From assembly GCA_000826855.1 (NCBI GenBank), contig JTLS01000068.1, positions 1 through 35,222 of the forward strand: DNA of 35,222 nt, given 5' to 3'. A program made the translations under genes and the position numbers. Below, piece by piece: positions 1,714 through 16,991 of the stretch. A model generated the notes under the pieces. It ran no database searches and had not been told where the DNA came from. It saw only the letters and a list, made by a program, of their open reading frames with translations. Numbering within the stretch: the stretch's first letter is position 1; each line of letters starts with the position of its first letter. The DNA is from Basidioascus undulatus (Eukaryota).

Positions 1714-4700
1714 TCATCTCGGAAACACCAGCCAGAATTTCAGGTCCCCAATCTCCTGCTCTTCAGCCAACAGCGTCTTCAGTCCCTCCGGCCTCTGCTT
1801 CTCGTCCACAGGCGTGCACCTCGTAGCCTTCGCGATCGCCTCCCGCTGCGTCCCGATCGCAAGCTTAAGCGCGTCGCCCCTCGATCCCTCTTCCAGCCGG
1901 TAGTACACATCGACGTCGTCCGTCGGCTGCAGCCCGGCCTTCTTCCGCAGCTTCTGCACGCGGTTGATGAGCTCGCGCGCCAGGCCCTCGTGCTCAAGTC
2001 CAGATGCCGCCGACAGTCTAGCAGGATCGTCACGTCCCCGTCCGTGTGCGCATCGTACCCCGCCTTGTCCGCGGGGAGCTCGATGTAGCCCGCGACGGTG
2101 AGGTCGCCCGTGACAAGCGGGATGCCGTCGACGGTCACGGAGCCTGTCTCGAGGTACGCCTTGACATCCGCGGACGAGAGTCTCGGCAGGCCCGCCTTGA
2201 CGCGGCCCATGTCCTTGCGCAGCTTGCGGCCGAGCACGGGCCAGTCCGCTGTCGCGCGGTAGCGGACGCCGGTCGATGCCTCGTCAGACGTGAAGACGAC
2301 CTCGCGGACGTTGAGCTCCTCACGCACGTGGCCCCCGAGGGAGCGGACGTCGTCGAGGAACTCAGCTTCGGGGTGGAAAATGATAAGCTCCTTGAGGGGC
2401 GTCTATAGAGAAAAGAAGCCGTCAGTATAGAGCGGCGAAAGGACAGAACAGGTAAACGACGCACTTTAAGAGCGACCTTCTGCTTCTCGCGGACAAAACG
2501 GCCGAGCTGAATGACCGACTGCATGCGCTTGACCTGGCGCTGGACGACGGGATCGAAGTACTCGGTGCGGACCGCGGGGCAAGGGAGGAAGTGGACGGAG
2601 CTGTTGTCGTCGTCGGAGGGCGGCAGGTACGCGCGCAGGCTTTGGTAGAGATTCTCCGTAAGGAAGGGGGTAAAGGAGGACTGCGGGAGGGAGTTGCATG
2701 AGTAGCTGGCGTCCCCGCTCGCGAGATGTGGGGTACGCGGTTGGGGCAAGAACCGACCATGGTGCGACAGAGCGTGAACAGCGTTTCGAAGAGGGTGTTG
2801 AGCGCCGCAATGGTGTCTTCCGTGCCGCGCTCGCCCTTCAGACGCTTGCGGTTGAAGCGGATGTACCAGTTCGTGAGCTCGTCAACGAGGCCCAGCAAGC
2901 GGGGCACGACGGTGTAAAGGCGGTAAGCTGCGTCCGTCGCCCAAACGCATCAGGACCAATATTGCGAAGCATTCGCAAGGGAAAGTACGAGCACGCACCG
3001 GCCATCTCCTCCCGCACGATCTCGATCAAGCTCTGGCAGCGCGCGAGGACCCGGAGGTCCATGACGTTGTCCGACCTGGGCGCGGCGGGGTCGTACTTGA
3101 ACTCGACCCCCGACTCCTTCTTGAGGAGCGCGACTTGGCCGAGAAAGAAGCGGAAGGAATTGAGCCAGGGGAGGAGCACGCGCGAGACGATCTCCTTCAC
3201 GCCCTCCTCGCGGAAGCGCAGGTTCTCGCCGCGGACGATGGGCGAGTTGACGAGGAACAGCCTATCAAAGCGGAGGGAGGGCATCACGTCAACAACGTCC
3301 GGCGTAGATCGAAGGAAGGCTTGGGTAAGGAAACGTACCGCAGCGCATCGGCACCATACTGCTCCATGACGATGCCCGGGTCGGGGTAGTTCTTGAGGCT
3401 CTTGCTCATCTTCTTCCCATCGCTGCGCAGCGTCCCACAAGCGCATCAGTCTCAACCCCAGCCCCGCCCTCAGAGCCCTCGCAAGCATGTACGCAGCGAG
3501 GACAAGGCGGGTCGCGATGAGGTTCTTCCACGGCGCCTTCCCGAAGAGGTGCGTGCCGAGGACGAGCAGCGTGTAGAACCACCCGCGCGTCTGGTCGATG
3601 CCCTCGGACACGAAGTCGGCCAGGAAGGTCGCCTCGAACGCGTCCTTGTTCTCGAACGGGTAGTGCGCCTGGGCGTACGGCATCCTGGACGCGCGTGCAT
3701 CACGTCAGCCGCGCACGAACAATCAAAAGAGAATCGGGCAGAAAAGGAGAGGGGGACGCACGACCCCGACTCGAACCAGCAGTCAAAGACTTCCTCGATG
3801 CGGCGGAGCACGCCCTTGCCCTGCCGCGACGGGATCGTGATGTGGTCGATCTTGTCGCGGTGGAGGTCCGTGATGTCCTTCTCGCCCGACAGGCGCTCGA
3901 GCTCCTCAATCGACCCTACCGCGACGATCTGTTGCCGTAGGGTGACTTCGTCAGCGGCGGAGGGAAAGAGGAAGAAGACTAGAGACGGACCTCCTCGTAG
4001 TCCTCGCTCACCCAAAGCGGAATCGGCGTGGCCCAATAGCGGTTCCGGGAGATGTTCCAGTCGCGCGCGTTCTTGAGCCAGTTCCCGAACCGGTTCTCGC
4101 TGACGTTGGCGGGGACCCTGCGGCACCACGGCTTTATCAGTGCCTGTCTTGCGCGACTAGCAGAAGATAGTGATGACCGACCAAAGCGTCTCGACGTTAT
4201 TCATAACCAGGTCACCGACGAAGTCGCCGACCTTCACAAACCAGGCTGGGATCGCCTTGTAGATGAGCGGCTCGCCGGACCTGTGGGTGGGTTCAGCGCC
4301 GTACACCAAGTCGAGCTGGACAAGGAGCGCGGAGAGACGGCAAACGCACCGCCAGCAGTGAGGGTACGAGTGGTTGAGCGTAGATTGGGTGACAAGACGG
4401 CCTCGCGCCTTCAAGACTTTCATGATGTCCTTGTCGGCGGTCTACATAGCATGCTAACGGCGTGAGCTATGCGGTTGGCCTGTCTCGTAGCCCGCAGGAC
4501 CGGGGAAGAAGAACAGGAGGGTGAGGAGAGAACGCGCACCTTGACGTGCATGCCCTTCCAGTCGGGCACCTCGTCCGTGAACCGGCCTGACTCGTCCACC
4601 GGGCACGGCGGCATCTCGTCCAGGCGGACGACCTTGTTCGCGATGGCGATGCGGTGGTCGTCGTCGCCAAATGCGGGCGCTTGGTGGATGATGCCCGTGC

Positions 4701-6160
4701 CCGAGTCGGACGTGACGTACGTGTCGACGAGGACCTTGAACGCCGTGTCCTTGAACTGTTGAACCCCGAGAGAGGTTCTTCAATACCGAATGCAGTCCGC
4801 GCAGGCGGAGATGGGGATGGAGAAAAGATCGAAAAGCAACGCGCACGCACCTTGTCGTAGAAAAAGTCAAATATCGGCGTGTACTCCCACTTGCCCATCT
4901 CAGCTCCCTTGAACGTCGCCAGCTTCGTGAACTTCGCCTTCTTGGGGTCCTTGTACAGCGTCGAGAGGAGGTTCTCGTGGAGGATGAAGTTGGCGTTGCG
5001 CTCCTCGTCTGGATTTTGACGTACGTGAACTCGGGGTGGACGCAGAGCGCGAGGTTCGAGGGGAGCGTCCAGGGCGTGGTCGTCCATGCGAGCAGGGACG
5101 TCGTGGGGTCGGAGAGGAGCGGGAAAGAGACGGTCACTGATGGGAGGGATCGGGTGTCAGAGGATGCAGGAACAGAAAATGAAAGTTACAGGATATGATT
5201 CGACAAGGGAGTGGAAAGAGGAAGCGAAAGAAGCTACCGGCCGGGTCCGAGATGTCTTTGTATGCCTGGCCCGCTTCGAAGTTGGACAGCGGCGTAGTGC
5301 ACGCCGTCGAGTACGGCATGACGTGGAGCCCGCGGTAGACGAGGCCCTTCTTAAACAGCTCCACAAATACATACCACACGCTCTCAGAACGAGGTGTTGA
5401 GCGTCTTGTAGTCGTCATCGAAGTCGATCCAGCGGCCCATGCGCTCGACGGTCTTCCGCCAGTCGGACGAGTAGCGCATGACGATCGCGCGGCACTCGGC
5501 GTTGTACGCGGCGATGCCCATCTTGAGCACGTCCTCCTTGCCGGATATTCCGAGCTTCTTGTCGATCTCGTGCTCGACGGGGAGGCCGTGGCAGTCCCAC
5601 CCGAACCGGCGGGGGACGTGGAAGCCTTGCGCGCAGGCATGCCGCGTCACGATATCCTGTAAAAGCAACGAGTGCGTCAGCATCGAAGGCGTTTCGACCT
5701 GAGGTTATAGCGCGTGTCCGTCCTTGGATGTCCAACGCTCACTAATGCCTCGGAGCCTCAAGTTGTCCTTGCGAGCATTGCCCTTGCGAGCATTGCCCTT
5801 GCGAGCATTGCATTGCTCCACGACATTCCAGCACATCCCTTCTCGCAACCGCGCGGTCCTACCCGCTGCGCCCTCCACCATCGCCACATGGCAAGCTCAC
5901 CTTGACCGTCCCAGCCAGAAGATGCCCATAATGAGGCAGGCCCGTGGCAAGGGCGGACCGTCGTAAAAGGAGAACAGAGGTCGGCCCTCCGAGAGCGCGA
6001 GCTGGGTCTTGAACGCGTCAATTTCGCGCCAAAACTCGATGACCTTCTTCTCCTGTTCCGAACCCAGCGTTATCATGCGTGAGCTAACTCCCCGTTAGCG
6101 CATTCAAGGGATGCTACAGTGCGAACCTCAGCGGGAGTTGAAGGGCGCCGAGACTACCAT
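1714..6160 (-). pseudogene. ILS1: Cytosolic isoleucyl-tRNA synthetase, full length (15 exons) but disrupted by five frameshifts
   Basis: Spliced translation gives [15 protein letters not shown] (HIGH-type motif), [59 protein letters not shown] and [15 protein letters not shown]. All 14 introns keep GT..AG ends. Frameshifting deletions at about 6135 (-2, early TGA), 5959 (-1), 5385 (-2), 5010 (-1) and 1995 (-1). Confidence 0.93.
5767..5811. repeat. 15-bp tandem repeat x3 (CCTTGCGAGCATTGC) in ILS1 intron 2
   Basis: Three perfect copies at 5767, 5782 and 5797, inside the 244-nt intron 5657-5900. Confidence 0.95.
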
Positions 6161-7739
6161 CCGGACGAAAAGACGGTTTGATTGGAATGTGTCCTGGAAA
6201 GCATAATGAAGGGATGGTACGCACTGTCGTGTGGTGGGATAGTCATGGCGGCGACTTAGTAAGCCGATATTATCAGTATAGAGCAAGCGAGAGTGAGTGC
6301 GACCTGGGCGACGTCGGAGGTGATGTGGCCAGCAAACGCTTGAAGACGAGGACCAAGACTGAATGAGAAGGGCGGAAAAGACGTTGAGCTTGGGGAAGAC
6401 TACGCGGGCCACGTTGATTCCGAACTTCGAAGATTCGCGAGCGAGTCACAAGGAAGGGTAAGCCTGAGTATCTCGCAGACAGAGAAAGCGGCACGCCTGC
6501 CCATTTGTTTGGTTGTCCGTCGTCGCGAGCTGCGAGAACATTAGCTGGGACATTAGCCGCCCATACGGTCGAAGTAGCACCGTCTTCTTGTCAGCCAGGT
6601 CAACGCAAGAGTGAATACGGAGTAAATGCTTGATGGAGGAGGGAAAGACGTTGCCGGCAGCACAACCAACACGACCTACCGGTAGTTTAGTACCGTAGAT
6701 AAGTACAGTACTTTGCTTGGGTGCGGCAAGCAGCACGAAGTCCGAATTGACCAAGATTCACATTCCTTTCGCACTAAATTCGGCTTTTTCCTGTCCAAGC
6801 TGACGCATAACCATTAAAGTTCCTTATTACAAAGCCAACACCAGGGCAAATTTGATGACGTCGCGAATGCTTTGTAACGCCATGCCGATGCCTCGCCTGC
6901 CAGTGCAGCCTGCCTCAGAATCAGAAGGGCGATTTGATTCCTGATCTTGAAGAAATCTGTATGTACCGAGCCAGGATGGAGAGATTTGCACACGGCTTTC
7001 TTCACGATGTACACAGCAGAGTCGCAATCATCAGTGCATTGCATGGGGTATCAGAGCAGACAGGCTCCAGATAGAACAGACGATGGCAGATCTGTCGCCA
7101 GGCTACTCCCTTGCTTTCGACTGTGCTGAGAAGATAGTGGGTGAGCGAACGTCAGCGATTTCTTCGGATAAGTGGAGTGAAGAGAGAGAGGGAACTCATT
7201 TGGGAAGAAGGACACGATGACGATGGCGATGGCGATGAGCGGGCTGGCGTGGAAACGCAGGCCAGCGCTCGCAGCGGGCTGGAAAGATGAGAAAGAGGAC
7301 AGAATGTCATGGCTAACATGAGGAGATGGTAACACACTGTCGGTGGTGAACGGGGAGTGAGCATGCAGAGATGGGGAGCGTACCGGAGCCGCATGTTGAG
7401 GTTGCCGACGCGACGTAAAATTTGGCGATCGTGTCGGTGTCGGCTAGAACTTTAACGATAGTGTCGGTGCACTTCCAAACTTCCCGCCGGTCGATTGGCA
7501 CCAACGAAAATACGAAAAACTCTGTCTCTACCAGCGCAAGCGCTGACGGTGGCGAAGAGTGTGTCCCAGAAATTGGCGCTGTCGCAGAAGCGACAGGCAC
7601 GTCGGGGACGTCGCGAAAGCCGATCAACCCGGGGTGGCCAGACCCCCTGGTGTCACGGACAGTCGGACGCCTCCTGCACAATAAGTGCTCCTCCCATGAA
7701 GCGCGCCACGGTAACTCCCCAGTACCAGTGGCTACGTGA

Positions 7740-9120
7740 CGCATCGAACTGCGGAATACGACACCTCGAGAGGTCGGGCGAGTGCGCATTGAGATGCGGA
7801 GAGGCGAAGTGCACCAAAATGCATAGGGGGACGAGTGGGAGCTCAAAAGCTGTCGGGACGCGGGAGTAACACACATTGAGATGCGGGAAGAGATGTGGCC
7901 GAAGAGGGACGCATGGACATGCGGGTTCAAGAAGCTTCGAAAAGCAGGAGGAGTGTCGAATGTCCCGAAGGATGGAAAAACCGATGGGAAATGCGAGTAG
8001 AAGAAGGCTGCAAAAGCCGGATAGAAACGCTGCGAAGAGCCGGGAGTGAAGCTTCAAGAAGCCTGTGAGTATGGAGATCTCCGAAGAGCTGAAGTGCACA
8101 CATTCGAGATGCGGGATTGGGAGCCTCAAGAAGCGAGAAAGGCACTCCGAAGAGCGGGACAGGGGCTTTGAAAAGCTGGCCGATGGAGAGGGGCTTCAAA
8201 GGGTGAAAACACGCATTGAAATGCGGGAAGAGGAAGACGAGCTTCGAGAAGCGGTGAGCAGCACATCGAAATGTGGACTGACTGACCGACGCATCGAGAT
8301 GCGGAAGGGGAGTTTCGGAGGAGCTAGCACATCGAAATTCGGGGTATAGGCACTTCGAGAAGCAGGAGGAGACGCTTCGAAAAGCGGGAAACGGGGGTGC
8401 TAAGGGTCAGCGTGCTGTGCGAGAGGACAGGGAAGGAAGGACACAGCGAGACGGACCACGCCGCTGCCAAGGAAAATCTGACAGAATTGCACAGTGGGCC
8501 ACAAAGGCATGTCAGCCGTGTTGCAAGCCACGTGGATCGCAAAGCAAAGCGTGACAGAGACACCTCACGGCGGCCACAAGACCCTGTACCAGAGAATGCG
8601 TCAGAACCGAAAGAGGTCTTCTCGAAAGGGCAAATGCTAACCGGGGGCGACGTGTACGGAAAGACGTGAGTAAGGACAAGGGGCGAAGTGTCGAGACGCG
8701 GATCGAGGACACCTCCAAAGGTGGGCAAGGGATCACTCATCGGAGCGGGACAAAGGAGCTTCGAAAAGCGCAAAGAAAGGCTTCGAAAAGCTTGCTATAT
8801 CGCTTTGAGAAGCGGGAACAAGAGGCTTCAAAGAGCTGGCACGTCGCTTACGAAAAGCCGGAGACGGACCTCGAAAGATAAGAACAGGCAGCCTTGAAAG
8901 GCCGGAGGAAAGTACCTCGAGAGGTGGGAGAGAGAGCGTCAAAATGCCAGATGGAAGCATTTCGAGAAGCGGGTGAAGAGGGTGCGCTTTCGAAAAGCGG
9001 GAGAGATGGGTGCGCTTCAAGGGGTCGGGCCGATACAATTTGACAAGTGAGCTTGAGGACTGCGCTTCAAGAAGCGGGCAAGAGGGTATCGCTCTGGGAG
9101 GGTTTCGCCTTGAAAGGCGG
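7740..9120. repeat. Periodic array of about 40 short hairpins/inverted repeats, consensus (C)RCNT-YRAR-ANGY(G)GG, in two blocks (7740-8388, 8688-9120)
   Basis: Units read directly, e.g. ACCT-CGAG-AGGT 7763, CGCAT-TGAG-ATGCG 7785, GCTT-CGAA-AAGC 7934, CACAT-CGAA-ATGTG 8262, CGCTT-CGAA-AAGCG 8373, CACCT-CCAA-AGGTG 8710, GCCT-TGAA-AGGC 8891, CGCCT-TGAA-AGGCG 9106. Modal spacing 22-23 nt with non-repeated purine-rich linkers. Confidence 0.85.
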
Positions 9121-9691
9121 AAGAGACTGTTGCGTTTGTTTTCAGGCCCGACGACAGGCAGCGCGGCGACCAGGTCTGCGATGAGTAATTCAGTGGGTAA
9201 TACTGCGACGGAGCATAAATGTACCATATTGAACTGCCGGCATACTTGCCTACAATTTACAAACGCCATCGACGCGCAGGAGGCCGTTTGACGTTGGCGG
9301 TAGGAATGCGACGTCAGCTAGTTAGCTTATCAACCCGCCCATCGATCAGCTGCGACGTCCTTGCGCCTCTTCTGCCCCTCACTTTCATTCTTTGGCAATG
9401 TTGCTGGATCCATCACTCCACAAGAATGGTTCTTTGGCAATTCATTACCCTTTCCGGTTCCCGGTCCGCTTTCCGACGCACACTGTTGACAGGTCCTGGA
9501 ATAACCGCAGGCAGGTTGCGGCGGACCGGCCTGCTTCCCTCCGGGCCGTGAAGCCCGGTGGTCACTCAACCTCCTCAAATGCACTTCTCTCCGCTTCTGA
9601 TCCGCACCACTCGAACGAGAATCCTCCGAGAGAGCGCTTACACCTCGAATTGAACTGATCTGAAGGAGCTACCAACGAGAACGCGATAGCC

Positions 9692-12321
9692 ATGACCCAG
9701 ACTTCGATCACTCACTTCACTACCCGTGCGTCCTCCGCTCCCATGTCTCCCTTCTCCCGGAGCACGCTCACCGTTGATAGCACCGGTCAGACGATGTGCG
9801 GTATCCGACCTCGCTCACGGGTGCGCTTTCCTCTGAACTTCGATCAACCACAGCCATCGCGTGAGGCTAAACTCGCTCTGCTGCAGGCGACGGCACGGAT
9901 GCAATGAACAAGACATGCGACTACTCCGCCGCGTACATCAAGCTCTTCACGTCCGATTCCAAGCTTACGGGATTTGGAATGACGTTCACTATCGGGTGCA
10001 TTACTCCCTTCCCCCCTTCTTTTCCCGTCCAGCTCGCGCTTTCCCCTTCCTTCTCCACCTTTCACCCTCGTTTCACGACTGACCTTGAACGCCCACCCTC
10101 AGCCACGGCAACGACGTTGTGTGCTCCGCCATCGAGCATGTTGCACAGCGTCTGGTCGGAAAGCCGGTTGAGGGGCTGTTTGAGGACATGGGGAAGACTT
10201 GGGACCACCTCGTCGCGGACCCGCAGTTGCGCGTAAGCTTCCCTCCCAGACCCGATCTCCTCCCCGCCCCCAAATCCACTTATTGGCTGGCTCTGACCTA
10301 CCTCTTCTCTGTACAGTGGCTTGGACCTGAGAAGGGCGTGATCAGCATCGCGACAGGCGCCGTTGTCAAGTGCGTCTTCCTTTTCTTCTTGTCAGACTAT
10401 TGTCCGAAGTGCTCTGACATTCTGAGGCTAACAGCGCCGTCTGGGACCTGTACGCCCGCTCGCGCAACAAGCCGCTGTGGAAGTTGGTCGCAGACTTCAC
10501 GCCTGAGGAGGTGCGCATTCAGCTTGTATTTGGGCTACCACGTACACCTTGCCGCCAGATAGCTTACGCAAAAGTTAATTTACAGTTCGTGAAGAGCACT
10601 TCATTCCGATACATCACCGACGCGATCACGCCGGAGGAGGCGCTGGCCCTGCTGCGGGAGAAGGCCAAGACTAAGCAGGCGCGTGAGGAGGAGGTGCTGA
10701 AGAAGGGATACCCTGCTTACACGACTGTACGCCCTCAAAATTCTTCCGATCCCTTAGGAATATGTACTAAACGTCATGTCCTTTTCACGGGAACTTTATC
10801 ACAGTCCGTTGGATGGATGGTACGCGCTACAGCCCAGCCTGCCTGTTATCCGCTTGGGTTTTCAACTGACTGTGAACCGCAACGCACTCTGCAACCTAGG
10901 GATACACCCCCGAGAAGGTGCAGCGCCTGACGCGGGAAGCCCTCGGGCAAGGGTTCAACCACTTCAAGGTTCGTGTGTCAAACCCCTTTCATTTTTCCGC
11001 GCGGCCCGCCCTGACATTGTCCCTCCCCCATTCCCAGCTGAAAGTGGGCATCTCGGTCGAGGACGACCTCAAGCGGGCGCGCCTAATCCGTTCAATCATC
11101 GACGACCCTGCGAACCTCCCCGCGCACCGGTCGGTCGACCCCCGCACTGTGGTCGGCAAGAACGCCGGGCCGACCGGGTGCGTGCTGATGGTCGACGCGA
11201 ACCAGGTACGGCTATGGAATAGTTGTGGGATGTTTGACTGAGTCGAGCGTCGCTGATGTTCTTGATTTGAGTTGTGGGTAGGTCTGGGACGTCAAGGAGG
11301 CTATCGAGTACATGAAGCAGCTCAAGGAGGTCAAGCCTTGGTACGTGTCCTTCCTCACCCGCTGCCGGCATTCGCGACCTTTCAGCTGAGAATGCGAACC
11401 TTTCCTTGCGCCCACGTAGGTTTATCGAGGAGCCTACTGCGCCGGACGACGTCCTCGGCCATGCCGCGATCCGCGCCGGGCTGAAGGGCGTCAACATCGG
11501 CGTTGCGACTGGCGAGCACTGCGCGAACCGCATGTACGTGGTTCCCCCCTATTCCGTCTCAAGCGATTGATTGATTAACGCTTTCCACCCCTACGCCAGC
11601 CTGTTTAAGCAGCTCCTGCAGGCCAACGCGATCGACGTCTGCCAGATCGACTCGTGCCGTCTTGCGGGCGTTAACGAGGTCCTAGCTGTGCTGCTCATGG
11701 CTACCAAGTTCGGGGTGCCGGTCTGCCCTCATGCAGGAGGTGTTGGTTTGGTAAGTCTGCTCTGCGCTTTCTGTCTTGGCGACTCGTCGCTGACTTGGCT
11801 GTTGCGACGCAGTGCGAATACGTCGTGTGCGCCATCTTCGACACTGCGACTAGCTTTGTACCCTGCGCCCGTTGTCTGACATTTACATTTCCCACAGCCA
11901 CCTCTCCGTCATCGACTACATCTGCGTTTCCGGCTCGTACGAGCGCAACGTCCTCGAGTGCGTTTTCACTGTCCTTGCCTTCTCCCCATTACACATCTCG
12001 CGGCTCGCTCACGCCTTGCTTCTGGCGCTTGAAGATGGGTTGATCATCTGCACGAGCACTTCCGCTACCCGGTATCAATCAACGCGAACGGGCGCTACAA
12101 CGTTCCGCTCGACCCCAACGGCGGGTACTCGTGCGTGTTCCGTCTCTTGCCCCTCTCCACTGGGCGTGTATGCTGACGATATTATCGGGTGGTTATGCCG
12201 GGGCAGCATCGAGATGTTCGACGAGTCGATCGAGAGGTTCACTTACCCGGGCGGCAAGTATTGGAAGGAGGAGTACCCGATCGAACTGGCGAAGGCGCAC
12301 GAGGGAAGGAGGGAGCTGTGA
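9692..12321 (+). CDS. lgd1: L-galactonate dehydratase / L-fuconate dehydratase (ENOSF1-like, mandelate racemase subgroup of the enolase superfamily); 17 exons, intact
   Basis: Spliced [41 protein letters not shown]...[14 protein letters not shown]...GYPAYTTSVGWMGY...HFKLKVG...LMVDANQVW...[11 protein letters not shown]...ATGEHCANR...[12 protein letters not shown]...[13 protein letters not shown]...[10 protein letters not shown]...TGA. KxK, D/E/E metal ligands and PH motif present, no frameshifts. Substrate cannot be fixed from sequence alone. Confidence 0.9.
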
Positions 12322-16918: not shown

Positions 16919-16991
16919 GGGCATTTGGTGTAGGGGTTATCACATCTCATTTGCATTGAGGGGGTCCCCGGTTCAATTCCGGGAATGTCCA
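16919..16991 (+). tRNA. tRNA-Ala(UGC): tRNA-Ala (anticodon UGC), intronless
   Basis: Cloverleaf: GGGCATT/AATGTCC acceptor stem with the G3:U70 alanine identity pair, anticodon arm TCTCA-TTTGCAT-TGAGG, T arm CCCGG-TTCAATT-CCGGG, discriminator A. T5 Pol III terminator at 16992-16996. Confidence 0.96.

Follow-up and report, generated by a model that had tools for sequence, protein, structure and literature searches.

A long array of short hairpin-capable units with co-varying arms between two divergent genes of Basidioascus undulatus

The A-repeat of Xist consists of units of about 24–26 nt, each containing a short GC-containing tetraloop hairpin; these units are joined by linkers of low complexity and, to current knowledge, serve as a platform for multivalent protein binding. 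The meiRNA of fission yeast is a protein-binding platform of the same manner with linear motifs. In bacteria, the REP/BIME and REPIN sequences are short dispersed hairpins with co-varying arms that are thought to be recognized as single-stranded DNA by an HUH-class nuclease. Tandem arrays are also found inside dispersed repeats, such as the central tandem repeats of DINE-1 and the minisatellites contained in MITEs (miniature inverted-repeat transposable elements). Here, we describe a locus from Basidioascus undulatus (assembly GCA_000826855.1, contig JTLS01000068.1), of which positions 1–35,222 of the forward strand were analysed; this whole stretch of 35,222 nt is referred to as the window and all coordinates refer to it. 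An original prediction, made from the letters alone, had placed an array of about 40 tetraloop hairpins with a period of ∼22.5 nt at 7740–9120. An array of about 43 short hairpin-capable units is indeed present at this site, between two ordinary fungal genes.

The units were located with a position-weight matrix which was seeded with perfect hairpins and the columns of which were scored independently. The scan gave 44 candidates with at least 4 bits between 7690 and 9160. The final set of 43 units was obtained from these by removing the match at 7924, which overlaps with its neighbours, and that at 8534, which lies in a spacer, and by adding the unit at 7840, a perfect AGCT/AGCT hairpin below the scan threshold that was included by hand. 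All 43 units are on the + strand (7741–8385 and 8688–9118) and follow each other with a modal step of 22–23 nt, which bears out the predicted number and period. With a threshold of 10 bits the same scan returned 34 matches in the array region, compared with four elsewhere on the + strand and five on the whole − strand. A unit consists of a 12-nt core with the pattern RCNT-YRAR-ANGY, in most cases a GGG, and then a purine-rich linker; the consensus over the 43 units is GCTTCGAAAnGCGGGA. The head-to-tail arrangement, the recognizable consensus and the constant period of the 43 units are those of a tandem repeat.

Block 1 of the array (7741–8385) contains 26 units that start between 7741 and 8374 at steps of about 22–23 nt, mostly 21–23 nt with some of 25–38 nt. 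It is separated by a spacer of about 300 nt without units (8386–8687, with the single weak scan match at 8534) from block 2 (8688–9118), which contains 17 units plus a variant at 8734 and has the most regular spacing (21–23 nt over 8688–8959). The scan starts in block 2 (8688, 8711, 8758, 8780, 8802, 8825, 8847, 8868, 8891, 8914, 8936, 8959, 8987, 9014, 9037, 9064 and 9107) reproduce the predicted starts to within 1 nt, and the unit that had been predicted at 8735 is a CTC/GAG variant which was seen by eye and in family D7. The sequence GTGTCGAG begins block 2 at 8688. A covariance model of the unit found no further unit in the remaining 33.8 kb of the window, where its best match scored 12.2 bits (E = 1.8); its matches within the array are a consequence of how the model was built. 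The head, a non-repetitive segment that precedes the array (7516–7740, + strand), the spacer and the tail have no second copy within the 35 kb by self-comparison.

Perfect hairpins with a 4-bp stem and a 4-nt loop are strongly enriched in the array: 21 were found in 7740–9120 (15.2 per kb) compared with 106 (3.1 per kb) in the remaining 33.8 kb, and ten hairpins with 5-bp stems compared with 23. The shuffle check proposed with the original prediction was carried out with 1000 dinucleotide-preserving shuffles of 7740–9120, which gave a mean of 4.35 perfect hairpins (s.d. 2.12) and a maximum of 13, so that the observed 21 stand well clear of them. Of the 43 units, 20 are perfect and 33 have at least three of the four pairs. 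The stems of the perfect units are GCTT/AAGC (nine), GCAT/ATGC (four), ACCT/AGGT (three), GCCT/AGGC (two), ACAT/ATGT (one) and AGCT/AGCT (one), and thus include all six 4-bp stem types that had been named. The loop is YRAR in 37 of the 43 units and its third position is A in every one of them. Loop changes from CGAA comprise 32 transitions and eight transversions, compared with 20 and 15 for uncompensated stem changes (Fisher p = 0.045). An origin of the YRAR loops by CpG decay (CG to TG or CA) was dropped since CpG is not depleted in the array (observed/expected 1.11–1.15, compared with 1.06 in the window). Two units, 8193–8204 and 9014–9025, both carry the stem GCTT/GGGT, in which three transitions have occurred in one arm; as + strand RNA this stem forms three wobble pairs and one C–G pair, while on the other strand it has three A·C mismatches.

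The divergence of the units is unevenly distributed. Identity between units is 0.61 in the core and 0.376 in the linker, where 0.344 is expected from composition, so that pairing and spacing are retained without the linkers, as had been claimed. The information per column ranges from 0.05 to 2.0 bits, which is not the even pattern of neutral decay. Tandem Repeats Finder reported just three short rows within the array, the longest with 2.1 copies of a 28-nt period at 8960–9017, because the similarity of the units is only ∼61% in the core and no more than random in the linker. Two-unit segments have been duplicated inside the array (families D1 and D3, 61–76% identity) and chimeric units are present, such as that at 8123 (GCCT/AAGC).

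Covariation between the arms was measured on an ungapped alignment of the 43 units, the rows of which are paralogous units of one array related by duplication. The stem pair 3/10 is Watson–Crick in 35 of the 43 units, with 15.5 expected from the column frequencies (T–A 18, A–T 9, C–G 7, G–C 1), and pair 1/12 in 32 of 43, with 23.9 expected (G–C 25, A–T 7). The mutual information of 3/10 is 0.86 bit, and that of the next-best column pair is 0.36. Standard pairs make up 79.1% in the alignment and 64.4 ± 2.0% in shuffles, doubly changed cells number 34 compared with 12.5 ± 2.8, each of the five pairs having changes in both partners, and a covariation score of 0.447 was obtained compared with 0.204 ± 0.026; none of 500 shuffles reached any of these three values, and partners slid by 1–3 columns scored 0.09–0.14. 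When the 172 core stem cells are compared with GCTT/AAGC, 107 are consensus, 35 carry a change on one side, 27 are doubly changed and paired and three are doubly changed and unpaired. When neutral evolution along a star tree was simulated with equal divergence, 4.3–6.6 paired double changes were obtained, with a maximum of 17 in 5000 runs. The three commonest stem variants are all compensated (A–T at 3/10 in nine units, C–G at 3/10 in seven and A–T at 1/12 in seven), while the commonest mismatched stem state occurs in five units. Flank identity is 0.365 both within and between stem types (permutation p = 0.47), which gives no sign of subfamilies in the flanks, and A–T at 1/12 is seen on four different inner-pair backgrounds. 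Covariation of the arms is thus real at the level of the units, beyond both the shuffle and the slid-partner controls, and the claim that the arms change together stands. Our reading is that pairing has been favoured and that the independent events were few.

The array is also part of a larger repeat with copies at other loci, which the original prediction had missed. Public contig sets were compared at 80% likeness; two of them (X1 and X2) carry the stretch of the window exactly and may be its source. The segment from ∼7516 to ∼9100 has at least two further diverged copies in the same genome, with ∼80–92% identity and in the same depth class as the source contig; the number of such copies is probably three. 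The parts matched in other contigs all lie within 7516–9097. A contig of 16,959 nt matches 7516–7696 with 27 differences, followed in order by 7898–7976 and 8071–8142, and is unlike the window before 7516. A contig of 3,420 nt matches 7556–7648 with eight differences. A third contig (4,421 nt in X1; 5,105 nt in X2, where it is joined with a 673-nt piece) matches 8076–8134, 8289–8406 and 8665–9016, the last with 49 differences and seven gaps; at the joint between 8406 and 8665 the 258-nt spacer is replaced by 300 other letters, so that the spacer is not conserved in this copy at 80% or above. The flanks of the copies are unlike the window and the numbers of units differ among the copies. An interpretation of the additional contigs as alleles was rejected, as they do not match 6000–7515, a stretch in which the isoleucyl-tRNA synthetase gene on the left of the array starts. 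As judged from these contigs, the array belongs to a small dispersed family of non-coding repeats.

Among the differences between copies that were listed, several show pairs that are intact in another copy at the mismatches of the copy in the window. The changes 8339 T>G and 8340 C>T convert the unit at 8329 to ACAT/ATGT, 8352 A>G and 8364 A>G turn the unit at 8352 into a 5-bp stem and 8735 A>G also restores a pair. In the reverse direction two changes were found (8781 and 8789), in a unit affected by an insertion or deletion.

The head (7516–7740) is the part that is best conserved in the other copies. It contains two hairpins that were read by eye, CAGCG-CAAG-CGCTG at 7531–7544 (5 bp, loop CAAG) and CTGTCGC-AGAA-GCGACAG at 7579–7596 (7 bp, loop AGAA); both are longer than the units of the array and have loops of a similar flavour. 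Another copy has a deletion of 1 nt at 7581, within the 7-bp stem. Folding of the head gave z = −2.0 on the + strand, with four of 200 shuffles as good, and z = −0.46 on the − strand. Just to the left of the left boundary of the repeat, GTGTCGG occurs three times in direct orientation within 7431–7470.

The array is non-coding. A protein-coding repeat was rejected as the period of 22–23 nt is not a multiple of three, and the spliced protein-coding repeat that had been named as a possible refutation is not borne out. None of the 17 open reading frames over 7054–9668 matched a Pfam family, and for a 246-residue open reading frame on the minus strand no homologue was found among 1240 candidates; five overlapping frames are open on the minus strand because that strand is pyrimidine-rich. 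Searched against Rfam at the gathering score, the whole window yielded a single match, a tRNA at 16919–16991, and 6600–9700 had no matches up to E = 5. A metagenome scan with a three-unit pattern returned 26 loci, all of which are unrelated simple tandem repeats that differ in composition from the array and none of which combines GGG, purine-rich linkers and varied stems. Literature searches, as far as the result listings and the opening parts of abstracts go, did not bring up a description of such an array in fungi; on these sources, together with Rfam and the metagenome scan, the statement that no described element resembles the array holds. An unrelated metagenome contig (L016, ∼1609–1720, − strand as printed) carries an array of four units in which AGCTTCGAAAAGCTT alternates with AACCTCGAAAGGCTT and in which the arms change together.

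Contigs of a public run, X3, bear on whether the repeat is transcribed. The run is recorded merely as 'DNA?'. Its contigs contain GT..AG joints at 9725>9791 and 9819>9886 and CT..AC joints at 6051>6126 and 6153>6225, all of which are in the two flanking genes; since these joints are introns, read in both genes, X3 behaves as cDNA and is taken as such here. Exact X3 contigs cover 7466–7769 and 8856–9013, and further X3 contigs show differences and joints that belong to another copy. Transcription of two or more copies is thus suggested; the contigs give no strand, ends or level. Stretches that are not covered by X3 (for example 6670–7339, 8278–8813 and 9082–9483) are not evidence of silence. 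As with the copies at other loci, this cover by cDNA-like contigs adds to the original prediction, in which the array itself has been confirmed.

We tentatively prefer, at a little short of an even chance, the reading that the locus is the array inside a dispersed non-coding repeat of low copy number, the units of which were kept pairable as single strands and are now partly decayed. The element would measure about 1.6 kb and would comprise the head (7516–7740), block 1, the 300-nt spacer and block 2, with its end near 9120. Every 22–23 nt unit would offer a 12-nt core able to fold to a hairpin of 4–5 bp with a YRAR loop, followed by GGG and the purine-rich linker. The array may have grown by tandem and multi-unit duplication, and the arms of the core would have changed jointly at least six times, with the compensated variants becoming the commonest. 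Pairing within a strand would have been constrained in the history of the family, the strand in question being that of a transcript or of a single-stranded DNA intermediate. If the hairpins act, a protein able to clamp short hairpins with an invariant adenine in the loop would find in them about 40 sites of low affinity. The copy in the window would be partly decayed, given that fewer than half of its units (20 of 43) are perfect and that several mismatches are intact in another copy.

A number of observations weigh against this reading. Some concern the structure. Block 2 gave folding z scores of +0.55 (+ strand) and −1.59 (− strand), no improvement over shuffles, and RNAalifold placed no consensus pairs on the alignment of the units. 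The mismatches are spread evenly over the four core pairs (11, 11, 8 and 8), and mismatches of the G·U type in these pairs number 12 on the + strand and nine on the − strand, so that no strand is favoured; the strand cannot be told from the sequence. The consensus hairpin has a calculated energy of −1.0 kcal/mol as a 12-mer and −3.4 kcal/mol as a 14-mer for RNA, and −1.6 and −3.8 kcal/mol, respectively, for DNA. The structure is not stable and the hairpins are too weak alone. If they matter, a protein must therefore stabilize them. Selection on a repeated structure, which had been suggested originally, is thus upheld in part: the covariation agrees with it, while a stable structured RNA is not supported, with energies of −1.0 to −3.4 kcal/mol, z scores that are not significant and no RNAalifold pairs.

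Other observations concern the marks of a mobile element. The copy number is very low. Inverted repeats of at least 16 nt are absent from 5800–10300. The best terminal inverted match is eight of nine bases (GTCTCT[A/T]CC, at 7524 and 9119), which was reached by 76 of 300 shuffles, and no word of 5–8 nt that could represent a target-site duplication is shared between 7495–7526 and 9118–9155, the right boundary not being exactly known. A poly(A) or Helitron-type end was not seen by eye, and the window contains no transposase or reverse transcriptase. In the inspection for a Helitron, which was made by eye with imprecise ends, no CTRR was present after the last hairpin (9107–9118, followed by GGAAGAGACTGTT) or, on the other strand, beyond the palindrome at 7531–7544. 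A DNA transposon or MITE with terminal inverted repeats was rejected on the data available; terminal inverted repeats and a target-site duplication were not found, while dispersed copies with unrelated flanks, as expected of such an element, were.

The last of these observations concern the number of independent events. The compensated states of the four core pairs are of only six distinct types, and in the star-tree simulation six or more were obtained with P = 0.07–0.12, at a divergence that was set to the observed value and is itself inflated by the amplified doubles. The variants cluster by block: A–T at 3/10 occurs in block 1 in all nine of its units, and C–G at 3/10 in block 2 in five of seven. 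The confinement of A–T at 3/10 to block 1 suggests descent from few events, and covariation at the level of events is modest. Origin of the stem variants by duplication of one or two ancestral repeats, which the original prediction had named as a possible refutation, is to this extent approached.

The same observations would follow if the array were neutral and minisatellite-like, a quasi-palindromic unit having been amplified and a few doubles, arisen by chance or by template switching, having been spread by unequal exchange without any selected structure. The two-unit duplications D1 and D3 agree with such a history, chimeric units such as that at 8123 resemble exchange between unit types, and the purine-rich linkers are prone to slippage and could lose similarity faster than the core. 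Template switching reportedly both creates and maintains hairpins (PMC8794818). We nevertheless think a neutral array distinctly unlikely. Single changes must outnumber compensated doubles by far in their origin and should be amplified just as often, yet the three most amplified variants are all compensated; 27 of the 30 doubly changed cells pair. The core is at 0.61 identity with linkers at the level of composition, and A–T at 1/12 is found on its four inner-pair backgrounds. Template switching between arms reportedly also inverts the spacers (PMC8604942), yet all of the loops share one polarity and an inverted loop is found in none of the 43 units. Amplification of lucky variants alone is disfavoured because flanks are not shared within a stem type, the commonest variants are compensated, the core is conserved relative to the linkers and the loop adenine is invariant.

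Constraint on pairing could also act in a long non-coding RNA (lncRNA) of the host with a small gene family, in which about 40 weak hairpins would serve as a platform on which a hairpin-binding protein is bound or sequestered in many copies. The exact X3 contigs over the head and block 2, together with those of another copy, suggest that more than one copy is transcribed, and the covariation of the arms, the loop adenine present in all 43 units and the restriction of the loops to YRAR would be expected of such an RNA. The GCTT/GGGT stems of the units at 8193 and 9014 keep three wobble pairs and one C–G pair in + strand RNA, and the head folds somewhat better than shuffles on the + strand alone (z = −2.0). 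Set against these are the small share of perfect units with mismatches that are not concentrated at the stem ends, the lack of strand preference among the wobble-type mismatches (12 compared with nine), the absence of a folding signal, the variation in unit number and order between copies and the absence of relatives in other organisms in the metagenome pattern scan. The first X3 contig, moreover, starts 50 nt outside the left boundary of the repeat, so that the transcript is not delimited by the element. We regard a host lncRNA as unlikely, with a real chance left to it. A more specific proposal appears slightly more doubtful still, namely a basidiomycete lncRNA family of about 40 tandem mini-hairpins, the arms of which are kept complementary by selection, which serves as a multivalent scaffold or sponge for a protein that binds hairpins, has arisen from or spreads like a mobile element and would be a fungal counterpart of lncRNAs of the Xist A-repeat type.

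The array is flanked by two divergent genes of housekeeping type and occupies the upstream region common to both. To its left, on the − strand, is the gene for isoleucyl-tRNA synthetase, with Pfam matches over 1717–5704 and the N-terminus near 6058–6077; the protein shares 48–60% identity with proteins from several classes of basidiomycetes, none of them a close relative. A spliced X3 contig shows two short introns near the start of this gene, 6052–6125 and 6154–6224 (CT..AC on the + strand), and its transcript reaches at least 6622 in X3 and therefore has a long 5′ leader. To the right, on the + strand, is a gene of the enolase superfamily (Pfam MR_MLE_C) with its ATG at 9693 and introns at 9726–9790 and 9820–9885, which are confirmed by GT..AG joints in X3. 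On the left the spliced X3 contigs extend as far as 6622, and on the right they begin at 9608.

This position between the 5′ ends of two divergent genes would suit an enhancer, insulator or silencer in which 12-bp quasi-palindromes, about two helical turns apart, are bound as duplex DNA by a dimeric factor. The 12-bp core, its regular spacing of 22–23 bp and the good conservation of the four stem positions and of the loop are in keeping with such sites. A dimer that reads half-sites does not, however, predict that positions 3 and 10 are complementary across T–A, A–T and C–G (35 of 43 units), the centre is always the asymmetric YRAR in one orientation, and the array also occurs at other loci with unrelated flanks. 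An array of heat-shock elements, in particular, was rejected: the motif TTCnnGAA calls for T, A and G at positions 3, 10 and 8, respectively, and all three together occur in only a minority of the units. Position 3 is T in ∼41% and position 10 is A in ∼45% of the units, and ATC..GAT and CTC..GAG variants are common. Sites in duplex DNA are for these reasons considered very unlikely, and the preferred reading remains that of a dispersed repeat with units kept pairable within one strand.

Elsewhere the window contains ordinary genes, namely those for an RRM protein, a homologue of MutS, a P450 and a tRNA-Ala, and none for a transposon protein. The tRNA-Ala (anticodon TGC; 16919–16991, + strand) is the only match to Rfam or from ARAGORN in the window.

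If the pairing of the arms has truly been selected, the locus would be a rare example among eukaryotes of minimal hairpins kept in a long array by compensatory change, and a natural multivalent hairpin platform with which the protein partner could be fished out. If template switching or the spread of few variants is responsible instead, it would be a clean case of a tandem array that mimics RNA covariation and a caution for the discovery of non-coding RNAs in repeats. Either way, cDNA-like contigs cover a repeat of 1.6 kb that is situated between two housekeeping promoters.

Of the systems considered at the outset, the REP/BIME and REPIN sequences differ in being prokaryotic, in having much longer stems and in usually occurring as singlets or inverted doublets, whereas about 40 direct copies are found here; no candidate gene for an HUH-type nuclease is present in the window. 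The array resembles the Xist A-repeat in its repeated short tetraloop hairpins with low-complexity linkers. The A-repeat has about eight copies and U-rich linkers, compared with about 43 copies and purine-rich linkers here, the two are not related in sequence and the locus described here is multi-copy. With minisatellites and the internal arrays of dispersed repeats (the central tandem repeats of DINE-1 and MITEs containing minisatellites) the locus shares head-to-tail units of 20–30 nt with interspersed variants, multi-unit duplications, a unit number that changes from copy to copy, an adjoining unique and conserved segment and dispersed non-coding copies. It departs from them in giving just three short rows with Tandem Repeats Finder and in lacking terminal repeats and target duplications. 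The likeness to DINE-1 and to minisatellite-bearing MITEs is one of description, and what sets the array of B. undulatus apart is that its divergence is concentrated in the linkers while the 12-nt core keeps its pairing.

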